Positions 43,031 through 49,072 are shown, numbered from the stretch's first letter. The stretch is DNA of 64,000 nt from Candidatus Poribacteria bacterium (GCA_963665845.2 OY762492.1:2816001-2880000); one strand, 5' to 3'. Made by a program: numbers and translations. Notes: generated by a model from the sequence alone, not told the origin.

Positions 43031-45389
43031 GTTTCAACGCCGCCCGATGATCCCGCTGGCGGCGGCGTTCACAGCGGGAGTTGTCGGCGGCTATTACTCG
43101 CTCCATTCGGCGCTGGCTTTCGGCGGGGTTGCGGTTGCCGCGCTGGCGTCATGGCATGCGCGCGACTGGAAAATTGGCGCCTATGCGCTTCTTGCGTTCG
43201 TCGGCTGGGCGCGCTGGCACGCGCATATCGATACCCCCATTCGCGCGCTTGAAGACCGCCAGCCTGTCCAAGCGGAGGGGTATGTCGTTGAGCGGGCGGA
43301 ACGCGCCTTCGGCGTGGAGCTGACGGTTGTCGGGAAGGTTCTGCCGTCTGGGGAGCGCGGACGGCTGCTGCTGCGCTGTCCGGCGGAATTGCCGGCGGAG
43401 TTTTCCGCCGGCGCGATGGTCTCTGCGGGCGGAGAATTGCGCCAACCGACCCTGATGCGCAACCCGAACGGGTTCAACCAGGAGCTGTTTTTCAACGCGA
43501 AAGGAATCGCCGCCGCCGTTCGGATTCGCAAGCTGTCCGACATTGAGCGAGTCGGCGTCGGCGGTCCGTTCTGGATGCGCTCGGCGTACCGCATTCGACA
43601 GGCGTTGCTCGCGCGTTTTTCCACCGCCCTAAGTCCGCCGAACGACGCCCTCCTGGCAGGCATTCTGATTGGGGAGCGGCGCGCCATTCCCGAAGAGATA
43701 CTGGAAGCGTTCCGCGATGGCGGCGTCATCCATGTACTGGTCGTCTCCGGCGCCAATTTTGCGCTCATCGTCTCCATCGCATATATGCTCTTGCGGGCGT
43801 TGGGCGCGCCGATGCGCGCGGTATACGCCGCCTCGCTGTTTCTATGCTGGGCGTTCGCTTTCTTTGTCGGCTTTCATCCGTCCGTCGCGCGGGCGGGGAC
43901 GCTCATCGCGCTTTTCATGCTGGGGCGGCTGCTGAATCGGGAAGCGGACCTGATGAACCTGCTGGCGGCAAGCGCGCTCGCGCTGCTCATCTACCGCCCC
44001 GCCAATATGTTCGACATCGGCTTTCAGCTCTCCTTCGCCGCCACCTTCGCCATCGTCTTTTTTGTGCCGAAATGGAACGACGGGCTTGAGCAAACGCGCC
44101 TCCGCCTCTTGAAACTGCCCGGCGGAAAGCTGCTGTGGACATGGGGCGTTCAAACGGCGCTCGTTTCATCCGCGGCAAATATCGCGACGATGCCGATCAT
44201 CGGCTTTCATTTTCAAAAGATATATCTGGCGGGCTTCGCGGCAAACCTGGTTGTGATCGCGATGATCGCGCTCATCACCGCGTCCGGCCTCATCACCGCC
44301 GCGGCGTCGTTGATATGGACGCCGCTCGGACGCTTTTACGGCGGCGCGACGGAGCTGGGATTCGATCTGCTGCTGCCGATGGTGCGCGCCTTTTCGGAGC
44401 TGCCTTACGCCGTGATGAACGCGCCTCGAACATGGGCGGGATACTATTTCGTCGGCATGTTTCTTCTTTTGTCGATCACATACGCCCGCTATGTTCAGGC
44501 GCGTCTGCGGGAGTGGACGCTGCTCGCGGGCGCGTGCGTCCTGCTTTGGATGCAAAGCCAAACCGCCGGCGCGCCGAACGGTCTGCTTGAAACGACTTTT
44601 TTAGATGTCGGGCAGGGAGACGCCGCCTTCGTTCAGCTGCCCGACAACACGCGCATTCTGATCGACGCCGGTTCCGCCTCCGAGTTCTGGGACAACGGCG
44701 AGCGGGTCGTCGTTCCGTATCTGTTGAGCCGCGGAATCGACCGCCTCAACACGGCGCTCATCACCCATTCCGACATTGACCATGCGGGCGGCATCCCGTA
44801 TGCGGTACGCAACCTGCGGATCGACACGATTCTGGGCGCGCCGCCGGGGAAAAGCGGACTGATAGAAGAAGCGGCGCGGGAGAGAGGAAGCCGCGTACGC
44901 TACGGCGCAGGAGAAACGATCGCAGAAGGCATAGCGCGCGGAAAGCCGTTTAGCGTCAAGACGCTTTATCCGCGCACGGAGGCGGAGGTGGACCTTGAGG
45001 ACTCAAACCATAACGCAGATTCGTTTGTCGTCATGCTGGAGTACGGCGATTGCCGAATTCTGATGACCGGCGACATTGACGCGCAGACCGAGGAGGAGCT
45101 GACAAGACGCCATCATCGCGGCGAGATCGACCTGTCGGCGGATATACTGAAGACGCCGCACCATGGCAGCAAGTCGTCCAGCGGGGAGCCGTTTTTGCGC
45201 GCCGTGTCGCCGCGCGCCGCGGTCATTTCCGCCGGACGCGGAAATATCTACGGACATCCGCATCCGTCCGTTTTAGAACGGCACGCGGCGTTAGGCATTC
45301 AAACCTACCGAACCGACCTGTCAGGCGCGATCCGAATCCTCTCGGACGGACGGCGCATATGGATCCAGCCGACAATACGCCAACCTTAG
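43014..45389 (+). CDS. comEC: DNA internalization competence protein ComEC/Rec2 (start may be ATG 43047)
   Basis: HVLVVSG, GFQLSFAA, LDVGQGDA, THSDIDHAGG, HHGSKSSS and YGHPH motifs. Confidence 0.93.
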   Translation: MLERSKFQRRPMIPLAAAFTAGVVGGYYSLHSALAFGGVAVAALASWHARDWKIGAYALLAFVGWARWHAHIDTPIRALEDRQPVQAEGYVVERAERAFGVELTVVGKVLPSGERGRLLLRCPAELPAEFSAGAMVSAGGELRQPTLMRNPNGFNQELFFNAKGIAAAVRIRKLSDIERVGVGGPFWMRSAYRIRQALLARFSTALSPPNDALLAGILIGERRAIPEEILEAFRDGGVIHVLVVSGANFALIVSIAYMLLRALGAPMRAVYAASLFLCWAFAFFVGFHPSVARAGTLIALFMLGRLLNREADLMNLLAASALALLIYRPANMFDIGFQLSFAATFAIVFFVPKWNDGLEQTRLRLLKLPGGKLLWTWGVQTALVSSAANIATMPIIGFHFQKIYLAGFAANLVVIAMIALITASGLITAAASLIWTPLGRFYGGATELGFDLLLPMVRAFSELPYAVMNAPRTWAGYYFVGMFLLLSITYARYVQARLREWTLLAGACVLLWMQSQTAGAPNGLLETTFLDVGQGDAAFVQLPDNTRILIDAGSASEFWDNGERVVVPYLLSRGIDRLNTALITHSDIDHAGGIPYAVRNLRIDTILGAPPGKSGLIEEAARERGSRVRYGAGETIAEGIARGKPFSVKTLYPRTEAEVDLEDSNHNADSFVVMLEYGDCRILMTGDIDAQTEEELTRRHHRGEIDLSADILKTPHHGSKSSSGEPFLRAVSPRAAVISAGRGNIYGHPHPSVLERHAALGIQTYRTDLSGAIRILSDGRRIWIQPTIRQP

Positions 45390-46144
45390 CGGCGTTTCAA
45401 ACGCGCCCAGGTCGAGGCGGCTTTGCCTTTAGGCGAGACGGAAAGCCCGCTGTTTGCCATATTCTCCTCAAGATCGCCCAGCGTCAGCGCGCGGTTGTAG
45501 ATGGCGATCTCGTCCATGCGCCCCATCATGCTGGTCAACCCTGTCTGCCCCTGCCCGATTCGGTAGGGTACCTCAATGCTGTCCAGCGGCGCGGCGACCG
45601 CAACTTCCGCATCCACCCCGTTGTTGATATACTGCCGCGCCTTCGCCCCGTCATAGACCGCCGCGATGTAATGCCATTTATTCAACGGCGGGGAAATATC
45701 CTGCCGGTCCCGTGTGCCGTTCCATCCGCCTTTATGCCACCACGTTTCAATCTGCGGCCTCCCTGTGAACTGGGAGCTCCACTGCATGGCGTGTCCGCCT
45801 TGGTTGCCGGCGTTGCGCCTTCCCATGATGGAGGAATCGCCCTGGTCCTGAGTCGGATAAATCCAGACGGTGATCGTGAGCTCCTCGGTCAGATCCAGTA
45901 TCGGCGTCGGGTCAATGAGTATGTGATCGCCGGGCGCATCGAATATGACGCATCCGCCGTTTTGGCCGTCTTTTGACCAGCCGACGCCGTTCAGAGTACC
46001 GACCAGTTCGCTTTCGCTCAAGTCGTTAGCCGTGTCGCCGGCGCCTTCATCGAACGGAAAATAGAGAACCAGCCCGTCCTCCTGTATCGCCTGCGCTGTC
46101 CACGCGGTCATGACAAGCGCGGCTAAAATCGTGATCCGTTTCAT
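45386..46144 (-). CDS. Secreted LamG-like jellyroll protein with conserved C-terminal motif
   Basis: Signal peptide; LVLYFPFDEG, WHYIAAVYDG and MDEIAIYNRAL motifs; ends SVSPKGKAASTWARLKRR. Confidence 0.88.
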   Translation of the reverse strand: MKRITILAALVMTAWTAQAIQEDGLVLYFPFDEGAGDTANDLSESELVGTLNGVGWSKDGQNGGCVIFDAPGDHILIDPTPILDLTEELTITVWIYPTQDQGDSSIMGRRNAGNQGGHAMQWSSQFTGRPQIETWWHKGGWNGTRDRQDISPPLNKWHYIAAVYDGAKARQYINNGVDAEVAVAAPLDSIEVPYRIGQGQTGLTSMMGRMDEIAIYNRALTLGDLEENMANSGLSVSPKGKAASTWARLKRR

Positions 46145-46211
46145 GTTGCCTCCTCTTTTAATCGAGCCTCACTTCTTTCCCTGTTTCAGACGACTGTTCC
46201 ACCGCAAGCAG
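46042..46211. repeat. Left 170-bp direct repeat bounding the island
   Basis: Matches 48903-49072 with 8 mismatches. Confidence 0.95.
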
Positions 46212-46457
46212 CGAACCAAGTCGGCGCAAATGTAAACGGTCAAAACAGACTCCCATGCGCGCCTCTATTTTAACCCGATCGGCGCGTTGATGTAACCCGA
46301 CCTCCTGACCCTTCGCCTGCGCCGGACAGCATGAACAATGATACAGCCTAGACCCCTCCCGTCGCCATTGCGGTTAATGCGCCAGCGGATCACTGTTAAG
46401 ACACGATACAGAAGCGGAGGAATTGGAGGCGGAGTTCGTTGCGCTATGAAAAAGTTG

Positions 46458-46486
46458 TTGCCGCGCCAAAGAATCTCCGCTATAAT
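46458..46486 (+). promoter_or_regulatory. Strong sigma70-like promoter of the island operon
   Basis: TTGCCG-N17-TATAAT with an upstream A tract. Confidence 0.7.
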
Positions 46487-46553
46487 CAATGGGAGAGTTC
46501 AGGTCGGGACGGTCTCGATTGCTGAACGCCGAACACCGTGAAAGGAGCAAACA

Positions 46554-46658
46554 TGAAACGATACACAATTGCTGCAGCGGCAGCGCCCTTGATGGCGTTC
46601 ACGCCTATGGCGGACGCGCATCAAATGCTTCTGGAAAGGAGCCCTCATGTCTTTTGAC
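46554..46658 (+). pseudogene. Short ORF or remnant consisting mostly of a signal-peptide-like leader (MKRYTIAAAAAP...)
   Basis: GAAAGGAG RBS; DNA similar to the 5' ends of the genes at 47515 and 48094; 34 codons, overlapping the next start. Confidence 0.4.
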
Positions 46659-47450
46659 GCTTTGAATGAAAAGCACGCAGATCAGCCCTACCTGTGGGCG
46701 AAGGAAGTGCTTGGAGTGGAATTATACTCTGTCCAAAAGCGCCTGCTGGAGGAACTTCAATCTCCACAAGATGAACCCGTCAGGATGGCGATCAGAGGTG
46801 GGGTTGCCACAGGCAAAACCTTCTTAGGAGCGGTGGCTGCCCTACACCACTTCTTCACGCGACCTGGGTCGCTGGTCATCTGCTCGTCTCCTGGTCAGTT
46901 ACCAAGTAGCCAACCGCTGTTCGGTGAAATCAGGTCACTTCTTGAAAGGTCTCCCGTGCGGGCGTTTGAACAAGTCCGAGTTCGGCACGATGAAATTCGA
47001 ATGTTGGATGCAGATGGTGAGGAGTATGCAGATGGTGAGGAGTACCCTGAGTGGAAAATTCAGGCGATCCTTGCGGAACGTTTCCATGCCTTTGAAGGCA
47101 TACTCTCTGATGGCGGGACTTTCGTGATCTTGGATAACGCGGCTGAAATCAAAAACCGCACCTTCAAAACCTTACTCTCCCAAGGACATGCGGTCGAGAA
47201 GGTGATGCTTATTTCCGCTCCTTATAGCAGTGATGGCTTTTTCTTCAACGCCGCTCAAGGAGAGAAAGGTTTCCGCCCCCACAAGATCAGCGCGTTTGAC
47301 ACCCCTGCGTTTACGGAGGAGTCCTGGGCGCCTCCAGGTCTTGTCAGTAAGGCATGGGTTTCATCTATGGAAAATGAGCACGGCAAGGAAAGTGCTTTCT
47401 ACACCGGGATGGTGGAAGGGGAATTTCAAGAGGACGACAGGGAGACCTGA
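46647..47450 (+). CDS. Phage terminase large subunit ATPase-domain-like protein lacking the nuclease domain
   Basis: LYSVQ adenine-binding-like motif; Walker A GGVATGKT; Walker B-like FVILDNA; ISAP motif III; ends shortly after GEF. Confidence 0.7.
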   Translation: MSFDALNEKHADQPYLWAKEVLGVELYSVQKRLLEELQSPQDEPVRMAIRGGVATGKTFLGAVAALHHFFTRPGSLVICSSPGQLPSSQPLFGEIRSLLERSPVRAFEQVRVRHDEIRMLDADGEEYADGEEYPEWKIQAILAERFHAFEGILSDGGTFVILDNAAEIKNRTFKTLLSQGHAVEKVMLISAPYSSDGFFFNAAQGEKGFRPHKISAFDTPAFTEESWAPPGLVSKAWVSSMENEHGKESAFYTGMVEGEFQEDDRET

Positions 47451-47464
47451 AATCTTTTCAGATA

Positions 47465-47490
47465 GGGCGGGCTACGGCTCGCCCTTCTTC
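47465..47490 (+). terminator. Stem-loop with C(UACG)G tetraloop; weak terminator or processing site
   Basis: GGGCGGGC-TACG-GCTCGCCC followed by TTCTTC. Confidence 0.45.
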
Positions 47491-47514
47491 AAACGCTCTA
47501 TGAAAGGAGCGAAC

Positions 47515-48039
47515 ATGAAACGATACGTAATTGCTGCAACTGCAGCGTTCATCCTGGCAGGGATTTGCGGTGTCGTAAACGCTGCGCCCAAAGACGACCT
47601 GGCAGCTAAGAAAATAAAACTGGCGGCTATGTCGGAAGGTATTTTAACGCCCCAGTATAACGAAAAATCGCCGAGAACGGCTTTTCTGCTTTCAGTGGCG
47701 CTGCCTGGCGGCGGTCAGTTTTATAATGGAGAGGCGGGCAAAGGGGCGGCTTTTCTTCTGACCTCTGCCGCTGGTTTTCTTGCATTCGTCTATCCTGAAG
47801 AAGTCCTAGACTTGTTTACAGACGAAGAATATTCCCGCTGGAGCAGTGATGACGATATCAGGTTCATCAAAATTATGGGGGCAATTACCTGGGCAGGATA
47901 CGCGATCTGGTCTGTAATAGATGCTCCAATCCAAGCGAGTAAGATCACCGCGCGGAACAAGCACCGCCATGAAATCAACGCCTTTCTATCGACGCCAAAA
48001 AATCCAAAATTTGGCGTCCTGATTTCAACGCGATTTTGA
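47515..48039 (+). CDS. Exported/membrane protein, TM2/DUF5683-like
   Basis: GAAAGGAG RBS; signal peptide; KSP..A.LLS..PGGGQFYNG motif; hydrophobic segments; C-terminal Phe. Confidence 0.7.
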   Translation: MKRYVIAATAAFILAGICGVVNAAPKDDLAAKKIKLAAMSEGILTPQYNEKSPRTAFLLSVALPGGGQFYNGEAGKGAAFLLTSAAGFLAFVYPEEVLDLFTDEEYSRWSSDDDIRFIKIMGAITWAGYAIWSVIDAPIQASKITARNKHRHEINAFLSTPKNPKFGVLISTRF

Positions 48040-48093
48040 GAGATAACCGCGGGAGGAGAAAATCCTCCCGCCGCACTAACGAAAGGAAGAAAA

Positions 48094-48870
48094 ATGAAAA
48101 AAATCATCGTTGCTGCAGCGGCAGCGCTCATCACTTTATCAGGCTGTTCGTCAGCAACGAATATGGTGGAAATGACCATGGAGGACAGGGTTCTGTTTGC
48201 TCCTGAGTTGTACGAGGTATGGCAAGATGCGCTCTTGGCGTTGGAGGAGCGGTACCAAGAGCAGGAAGGCGCGTCCAAGAAACTTCAGGCTGCTTTGTCG
48301 GAAGATACTTGGGATCTTTTATCTCTCGCTTTTGAGACAGTCCAAGACGCGAAAGATCCTTCCTCCCGCCAACTGGCTACTGAAACTCTCGAAATTGCCA
48401 AAAGAGCTGCAGAAGATGAGGCGCCGTTGGAATTGGGTGTATTCTGGGCGGCATACTCTAAAACTGTCGATGCGAACAAAATAGTTGAGAGGGAATTGAT
48501 GACGTTTTATGCTGGCACCGCAGGAGCGGAGAAGGGCGTTACGGCGTTAAAAAGTCTGCAATCTAAAAATCCGGGAGCTTTTGACAAATTCCAAACAGCG
48601 AGGAAGTATCTCTTTGAAATCGCCCGTAAAGAATGGGACGATCTCGAATTGAGCCGCGCCAGATATGTGAATATTCTCAATGGATCTGCGCCCAAGGGAG
48701 CTTCCGTGAGTCAGGCGAAGGAGAAATACAGCGCCGCCAAGGATGCTCTGGCAAAAGTGGCCCCTCAGGAATGGTCCGAATATATTGCAGCAACGATGGA
48801 GATCCGCAGGCTACATCCTGAAGTTTGGCATGACTACGTAGACGCCAAGGCTCGCGTGTACGTGAGGTAA
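48094..48870 (+). CDS. Putative alpha-helical lipoprotein
   Basis: MKK plus hydrophobic stretch plus LSGC lipobox; GAAAGGA RBS. Confidence 0.75.
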   Translation: MKKIIVAAAAALITLSGCSSATNMVEMTMEDRVLFAPELYEVWQDALLALEERYQEQEGASKKLQAALSEDTWDLLSLAFETVQDAKDPSSRQLATETLEIAKRAAEDEAPLELGVFWAAYSKTVDANKIVERELMTFYAGTAGAEKGVTALKSLQSKNPGAFDKFQTARKYLFEIARKEWDDLELSRARYVNILNGSAPKGASVSQAKEKYSAAKDALAKVAPQEWSEYIAATMEIRRLHPEVWHDYVDAKARVYVR

Positions 48871-48882
48871 TGCGTCGCGCAA

Positions 48883-49005
48883 TCAGGGGGCGGGATTCTG
48901 ATCGCCTTCATCGAATGGGAAGTAGAGAACCAGCCCGTCCTCCTGTATCGCCTGCGCTGTCCACGCGGTCATGACAAGCGCGGCTAAGATCGTGATCCGT
49001 TTCAT
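48883..49005 (-). pseudogene. Truncated duplicate of the LamG gene 5' end (40 aa)
   Basis: MKRITILAALVMTAWTAQAIQEDGLVLYFPFDEG followed by DQNPAP-stop. Confidence 0.85.
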
Positions 49006-49072
49006 GTTGCCTCCTCTTTTAATCGAGCCTCACTTCTTTCCCGGTTTCAGACGATTGTTCAACCGCCAGCAG
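48903..49072. repeat. Right 170-bp direct repeat bounding the island
   Basis: Matches 46042-46211 with 8 mismatches. Confidence 0.95.

Follow-up and report, generated by a model that had tools for sequence, protein, structure and literature searches.

A stand-alone terminase ATPase domain, predicted to be hydrolysis-dead, in a foreign insertion of a Candidatus Poribacteria genome

Several described systems bear on what the ATPase domain of a large terminase (TerL) might do when it stands alone or cannot burn ATP, including T4 vs.8, the Gpi protein of Vibrio cholerae PLE satellites, and the packaging motors of lambda, T4 and P74-26. In lambda TerL, replacing the catalytic glutamate with asparagine (E179N) gave no detectable phage, as did every catalytic-Glu substitution tested, and the E179A and E179Q proteins are reported to fold and assemble normally with ATP hydrolysis all but lost (PMC6379665). 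The T4 motor tolerates inactive subunits, whereas the lambda motor is reportedly strictly coordinated and not tolerant (PMC8589836). The isolated ATPase domain of P74-26 TerL is described as gripping DNA (10.1101/080440).

Here we describe a 267-aa TerL-like ATPase protein encoded within a 64,000-nt stretch of a Candidatus Poribacteria chromosome (the window, i.e., the whole stretch that was analysed, in which positions are counted from its first letter). Stand-alone TerL-ATPase homologues are already in print (vs.8), and what sets this case apart is the TerL family, the pattern of residue losses, and the location in a chromosomal insert of a lineage with its own packaging module. As far as the literature outside subscription journals shows, neither a dead terminase-ATPase on a chromosome nor the Poribacteria head module has been described. 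The explanation that we favour, tentatively and at somewhat less than an even chance, is that the protein is a selected, hydrolysis-dead terminase mimic which would act by binding partners and thereby damp packaging.

A foreign insertion with three genes

The cassette is a discrete foreign insertion with a 170-bp target duplication. The insert is 2,691 bp long (46212..48902) with a GC content of 51.4% (genome 59.7%), it contains no integrase, and it lies between two 95%-identical copies of a 170-nt direct repeat. The left copy (46042..46211) covers the upstream region and first 34 codons of a host LamG-domain gene, which is intact on that side, and the right copy (48903..49072) holds a 34-codon stub of the start of that gene. 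In the congener G001, which is collinear on both flanks, the repeat is single copy, i.e., the same site is empty. Third-position GC is 0.49-0.55 in insert genes versus 0.70-0.77 in host genes, and one of the eight genomes of the family carries the insert. As an integrase is absent, we infer that a small circle entered by a single crossover, or that this is the leftover of a larger island. The target LamG-domain gene (window 45386-46144) is one of a family for which tblastn gives more than 30 matches across the genome.

Along the plus strand, the insert runs from a promoter-like site through a 34-codon signal-peptide stub to three genes with strong hairpins between them, and the gene leaders share a GAAAGGA-containing RBS block. 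The Sigma70-like promoter (TTGCCG-17-TATAAT, 46458..46486), a consensus match only, sits inside a recurrent leader sequence. The 34-codon ORF (46553..46657), whose signal-peptide-like start resembles that of the TM2-like gene, overlaps the start of the terminase-like ORF by 11 nt and is probably a gene remnant. After it come the terminase-like ORF (46647-47450), a 174-aa TM2/DUF5683-like signal-peptide protein (47515-48039), an intergenic hairpin of nine pairs (48049..48071), and an orphan predicted lipoprotein of 258 aa (48094-48870). An earlier note on this DNA had described three co-oriented ORFs (46647-48870), the motifs LYSVQ, GGVATGKT, LDNA, ISAP and GEF in the first of them, and its strong RBS, and all are as claimed; the RBS is AAGGAG, 5 nt upstream of the ATG. 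Within the terminase-like ORF there is also an exact, in-frame tandem duplication of 18 nt (47008..47043, plus strand), which gives ADGEEY twice.

Beyond the stop codon of this ORF lies a gene-end module (47451..47514, plus strand). It comprises four in-frame codons with a second stop (NLFR-stop), a strong hairpin of -29 kcal/mol at 47460-47488, and the RBS of the following gene. A second islet of low GC content elsewhere in the genome has a junction with about 80% identity to this module. The islet's upstream gene ends in LFR-stop and the 267-aa ORF reads RET-stop-NLFR-stop in frame, which suggests that the 3' end of the ORF is probably a deletion or recombination joint. Judged by sequence, the format of the gene (own RBS, downstream hairpin) matches that of its neighbours and of the second islet, unlike a packaging operon.

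Similar arrangements occur elsewhere. The second islet (G000:C1:2570048-2571549) has two orphan genes with the insert's hairpin-RBS junction; it is 91% identical in G001, but a different upstream gene adjoins it there, and a gene near the islet is one that we take to be radC-like. The promoter-containing leader (window 46426-46540) has one further copy in the genome and recurs at several G001 sites, ahead of secreted-protein genes, and at two of the G001 sites it is tandemly duplicated; the shared leader motif gave no matches in metagenome contigs. Another low-GC segment, 2.3 kb between 80-nt repeats (G000:C1:2207618-2210118), appears by eye to encode a methyltransferase-like protein and possibly a restriction enzyme.

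The two envelope genes bear on the proposal of the earlier note that the cassette is an anti-phage unit, in which a dead TerL poisons packaging and two envelope proteins block phage entry. In its favour, all three genes point the same way downstream of one promoter-like site and belong to one insertion unit, and inhibition of packaging is a real strategy, known from Gpi, which blocks TerL by binding to it (10.1101/2024.04.22.590561). However, strong hairpins separate the genes, and the three occur together in one genome only, with no recurrence elsewhere. The similarity of the 174-aa protein to TM2/DUF5683, which the note had pointed out, is below the Pfam cut-offs (E 6.6e-5 and 0.0025), and four paralogues of it occur in this genome, with further matches in four of the seven other family genomes (five of eight in all), in ordinary host contexts where inspected. 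The lipoprotein does have an LSGC lipobox (LPAM_1, E 0.032), but the homologue search returned only the protein itself, with Atlas matches below 0.9 that serve as leads only, and its phage matches are either confined to the signal peptide (Cor, residues 1-21, E 0.014) or weaker than E 0.05. PADLOC 2.0 assigned none of the three proteins to a family at E<=0.1. Nothing found links the envelope genes to phage defence or entry exclusion, and they are probably fellow cargo sharing a gene format rather than parts of one system, so we regard the three-gene anti-phage cassette as very unlikely.

The terminase domain and its conserved residues

The 267-aa gene has the fold and ancestry of TerL, has lost the nuclease domain, and has kept its reading frame. 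In a profile search, residues 5-262 of the protein align with phrog_5902 (E 1.2e-10), and there is a weak match to PHROG 2, the profile for the large subunit of terminase; its full-length relatives match PHROG 5902 and PHROG 2 alike, and strongly. An AlphaFold2 model built from 147 sequences has a mean pLDDT of 92, and the PDB structures most similar to it are those of the T4 gp17 (2o0j) and P74-26 TerL (4znl) ATPase domains. A single-sequence PDB search gave no match. The model predicts an ASCE ATPase fold with the lid subdomain, i.e., a complete ATPase domain. Its top viral fold matches are large terminases, and the same search returned 231-235-aa viral models, which are stand-alone TerL-ATPase homologues. 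The terminase identity given in the earlier note, which had been based on motifs, therefore stands.

The note had also claimed a clean stop where the nuclease domain would begin, and the alignment agrees: the TerL family profile aligns best with Sf6 gp2 (PDB 4idh), and the ORF ends at the ATPase-nuclease linker of that alignment. There is no RNase H-like nuclease domain in the ORF, and a nuclease-domain profile run against all six frames of the genome found only a separate full-length TerL, which excludes a frameshifted nuclease downstream. The claim that portal, capsid and small-terminase genes are missing nearby agrees with the immediate surroundings, where no small terminase or portal adjoins the ORF. 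Farther off, the genome does have a portal (its sole portal match, about 595 kb off), a capsid gene and a full TerL elsewhere.

Which residues the domain has kept and lost was assessed against an alignment of 156 relatives, using the first 330 residues of each. The nucleotide-binding positions are kept, i.e., Q30 (154/156 relatives), the GKT at 56-58 with G56 and K57 (the latter 156/156), and D163. The catalytic glutamate is replaced (E164N; 154 of the 156 relatives have Glu and none Asn), as the LDNA in place of DEA had implied. The motif reading SAP instead of GNP, presumably the coupling motif in this TerL family, has lost its asparagine (N191A; 151/156 Asn, no Ala). Further changes are Q86P (143/156 Gln, no Pro), H153L and R255M. 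Given the behaviour of catalytic-Glu mutants of lambda TerL, loss of hydrolysis is a well-grounded expectation: the domain should be unable to hydrolyse ATP and, from what is known of the family, probably still binds it. The view of this protein as a stand-alone, terminase-derived, hydrolysis-dead ATPase domain is thus borne out by profile, fold and E164N. Its net charge is -12, compared with -0.9 +/- 4.4 among the relatives, of which two of 156 are equally acidic, and this acidity argues against the domain gripping DNA.

Sequencing reads support the sequence as given. The 2.8-kb stretch was reassembled without a differing letter in the ORFs from four of four full-share runs (three samples, one study), so neither the stop nor E164N is an assembly error. 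Small-share runs from three other studies yielded short low-depth pieces only, identical within the ORFs, and across all seven runs there were no ORF variants.

Close relatives of the 267-aa ORF are missing from every set searched. A library of 1.84 billion 50% representatives gave 866 proteins at E<=0.001, but nothing above 97 bits; this best match is a full-length TerL at 30% identity, and the best 150 are nearly all 420-590 aa. Full-length TerLs as closest homologues are one of two outcomes that the earlier note had set against its own reading, the other being neutral decay. A word-index search (lengths 146-468 aa) added two full-length matches at 28%, scans of viral, metagenome and genome contigs found no close relative in any of the three, and 59 GenBank phage records match, of which the best 20 are all annotated as terminase (26-28%). 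Among the aligned relatives, 14 of 156 are shorter than 380 aa. Seven short ones were examined: two are labelled partial, three are singletons on short contigs, and two fall into clusters of uniformly short proteins (P0062 and P0129, 28 and 6 members, 249-266 aa, some on long contigs). All 21 sequences compared from these two clusters retain DE and GNP, and the proteins are probably active halves of split terminases. Truncation of this kind was not seen among 105 same-family TerL loci, where one ATPase match was present in 92, two in none, and a stop after the ATPase domain in none.

The 267-aa ORF is strongly diverged. Two quick trees (61/157 and 24/157 rows, the first without P0036, P0058, P0046 and P0060-P0152) gave it branches of 1.71 and 1.87, where the medians were 0.76-0.77, i.e., over twice the median, and a branch of this length is also compatible with relaxed constraint. 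At columns conserved to at least 70%, it has lost 19 of 47, more than any of the 156 relatives. The losses are unevenly spread at the strictest threshold: among the 14 columns conserved to at least 90% (picked post hoc), three of six polar residues are lost (Q86, E164, N191) and none of the eight Gly/Pro/Phe positions (Fisher p 0.055). At a second strict threshold, the counts are 5/9 polar versus 2/14 structural (p 0.052), and at looser thresholds the contrast weakens (p 0.11-0.12).

These patterns must be weighed between the partner-binding mimic that we favour and its main rival, a functionless relic, which we consider somewhat unlikely. According to the latter, the gene is what deletions have left of a decayed prophage or a split terminase, carried with the envelope genes, any selection on it being past. 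An orphan on a very long branch, in an insert found in one of eight family genomes, is what a relic would look like, and the natural ATPase-only halves with intact motifs could be its source. The insert also has signs of deletion, namely the 34-codon stub before the ORF, the foreign gene end after it and the missing integrase, and the in-frame NLFR-stop counts against the mimic for the same reason. However, a relic would have to have kept a frame of 267 codons and all eight near-invariant structural residues despite the 19 lost columns. We simulated neutral mutation at several indel rates, with 4,000 runs for each setting: once 21% of the amino acids had changed, a frame of this length was still open in 0.03-4% of the runs (P 0.0003-0.04), and at 10% change in 1-23%. 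The result speaks for past selection on the fold and makes pure neutral decay unlikely, although it must be borne in mind that this ORF had been chosen for being open.

The mimic reading draws on the same observations, i.e., on polar losses beside retained structural and nucleotide-binding residues and on the open frame, and on three more: E164N (codon AAC) and N191A (codon GCT) each need two base changes, the sole recent indel is in-frame, and the predicted complete domain has its own RBS and hairpin. Stand-alone homologues of the TerL ATPase in phages (T4 vs.8, as described in PMC13601566, and the 231-235-aa viral models) also fit it. Against it stand the branch length, the acidity, and the lack of a second member. 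There being no close relative, second member or ORF variant to compare, we infer from the conservation pattern and the simulation that the fold stayed under purifying selection once catalysis was gone, and the donor mobile element is the likeliest place for this.

Possible partners and sensors

The mimic that we favour would have evolved in a donor mobile element, under selection for its fold once catalysis was lost. The dead domain would then bind the partners of a packaging motor of the same family, either the small terminase or the motor subunits, and this binding would damp DNA packaging. Poisoning of the motor ring is the less sure version of this mechanism, because the protein is without the C-terminal tail thought to bind the portal (10.1101/080440) and because T4 motors tolerate inactive subunits, though those of lambda reportedly do not. 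More specifically, the bacterium may have captured a purpose-evolved pseudo-terminase, able to bind ATP and unable to burn it, that would serve its host as a dominant-negative motor mimic: it would join or sequester same-family motors and stall them, acting against incoming phages or on the lineage's own capsid system of the gene transfer agent (GTA) type. This we rate as unlikely.

A motor of the same family is encoded in the same cell, which adds to the case for the mimic. The resident TerL (C1:2,250,926-2,252,359) is intact, single and 477 aa long, is syntenic in G001, and has a dN/dS versus G001 of 0.105 (control gene 0.239); TerL is present in four of the eight family genomes. Fifteen kilobases from it, at host GC, lies a module of portal, protease, capsid, neck, tube-like and small membrane genes (C1:2267117-2272781). 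The capsid gene is 69-71% identical between G002 and each of G000, G001 and G003 (four genera) and was not found among 53 genomes of other families. Loci assigned to the module or its TerL lie in G000, G001, G002, G003 and G004. The module is contiguous with tail-side genes in G002 and split in G000 and G001, the G002-type tail-side genes were not found in G000, and no integrase was seen beside the head module. From its genes, it looks like a domesticated GTA-like system or a candidate gene transfer agent. Also near the resident TerL are low-GC genes (G000:C1:2243338-2246900) with an ORF that is MazF/PemK-like by eye and unannotated, possibly defence-related ORFs.

The resident TerL is a possible target of the 267-aa protein, and the dead domain could accordingly be a brake, binding the resident TerL or its partners and limiting GTA-like packaging. 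The conserved, intact TerL and its head module speak for such a role, and an origin from the resident Poribacteria TerL clade is not rejected (AU test, p 0.077). However, in the best quick trees, which have a log-likelihood better by 20, the ORF branches outside that clade, its identity to the resident TerL is 25-29%, which also counts against the mimic in general, and G001 retains the module without having the insert. Particle formation by the module is itself putative, and we hold this role to be highly improbable.

A further reading takes up the decoy for terminase-sensing Avs systems that the earlier note had named as its alternative: the donor phage or element may have used the dead domain as a counter-defence decoy that occupied a terminase-sensing Avs or Upx protein without triggering it. 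The ATPase domain is the part of terminase that Avs2 and Upx recognise, and contacts between Avs2 and the terminase-bound ATP are described (PMC13601566), so an ATP-binding dead domain would be a ligand of the right shape. The same source reports that ATPase-only fragments of TerL and vs.8 activate Avs2 and Upx rather than blocking them, and that activation of Upx mostly persists when the Walker B Asp is mutated, both of which weaken the idea. Searches of the genome (90% complete) for Avs2, Avs3a and NACHT found no match, with the proviso that the Avs3a control matched nowhere, and a chromosomal copy would disarm its own host. We therefore consider a decoy distinctly unlikely.

Comparison with known systems

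As it stands, this is a single orphan gene from an uncultured lineage and a modest lead, and the conserved GTA-like head module is perhaps a more tractable subject. If the protein is active, a chromosomal dead terminase would be a simple new way of interfering with DNA packaging and would give a testable handle on the role of stand-alone terminase-ATPase genes, such as T4 vs.8.

Large terminases share with the 267-aa protein the fold, the adenine-motif Gln, the Walker A GKT, the Walker B Asp and a lid ending in GEF. They differ in having a nuclease domain, a C-terminal tail, the catalytic Glu and GNP, where the 267-aa protein has Asn and SAP and is acidic, and its gene, unlike theirs, has no small terminase or portal adjoining. 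The ATPase-only members of P0062 and P0129 come from the same TerL family, at about 250-265 aa and with a constant length per cluster, but their DE and GNP are intact, whereas the 267-aa protein is without both.

T4 vs.8, too, is a gene of its own with homology to the ATPase domain of TerL. By its description in PMC13601566, however, it keeps Walker A and B, belongs to a lytic phage with an intact TerL alongside, and activates EcAvs2, while the 267-aa protein derives from another TerL family, is without the Glu and is encoded on a bacterial chromosome. Gpi resembles the proposed mimic in being a mobile-element protein which blocks packaging by binding TerL; the two differ in that the abstract describing Gpi (10.1101/2024.04.22.590561) does not describe terminase homology, and in that the activity of Gpi is experimental whereas the role of the 267-aa protein is predicted.
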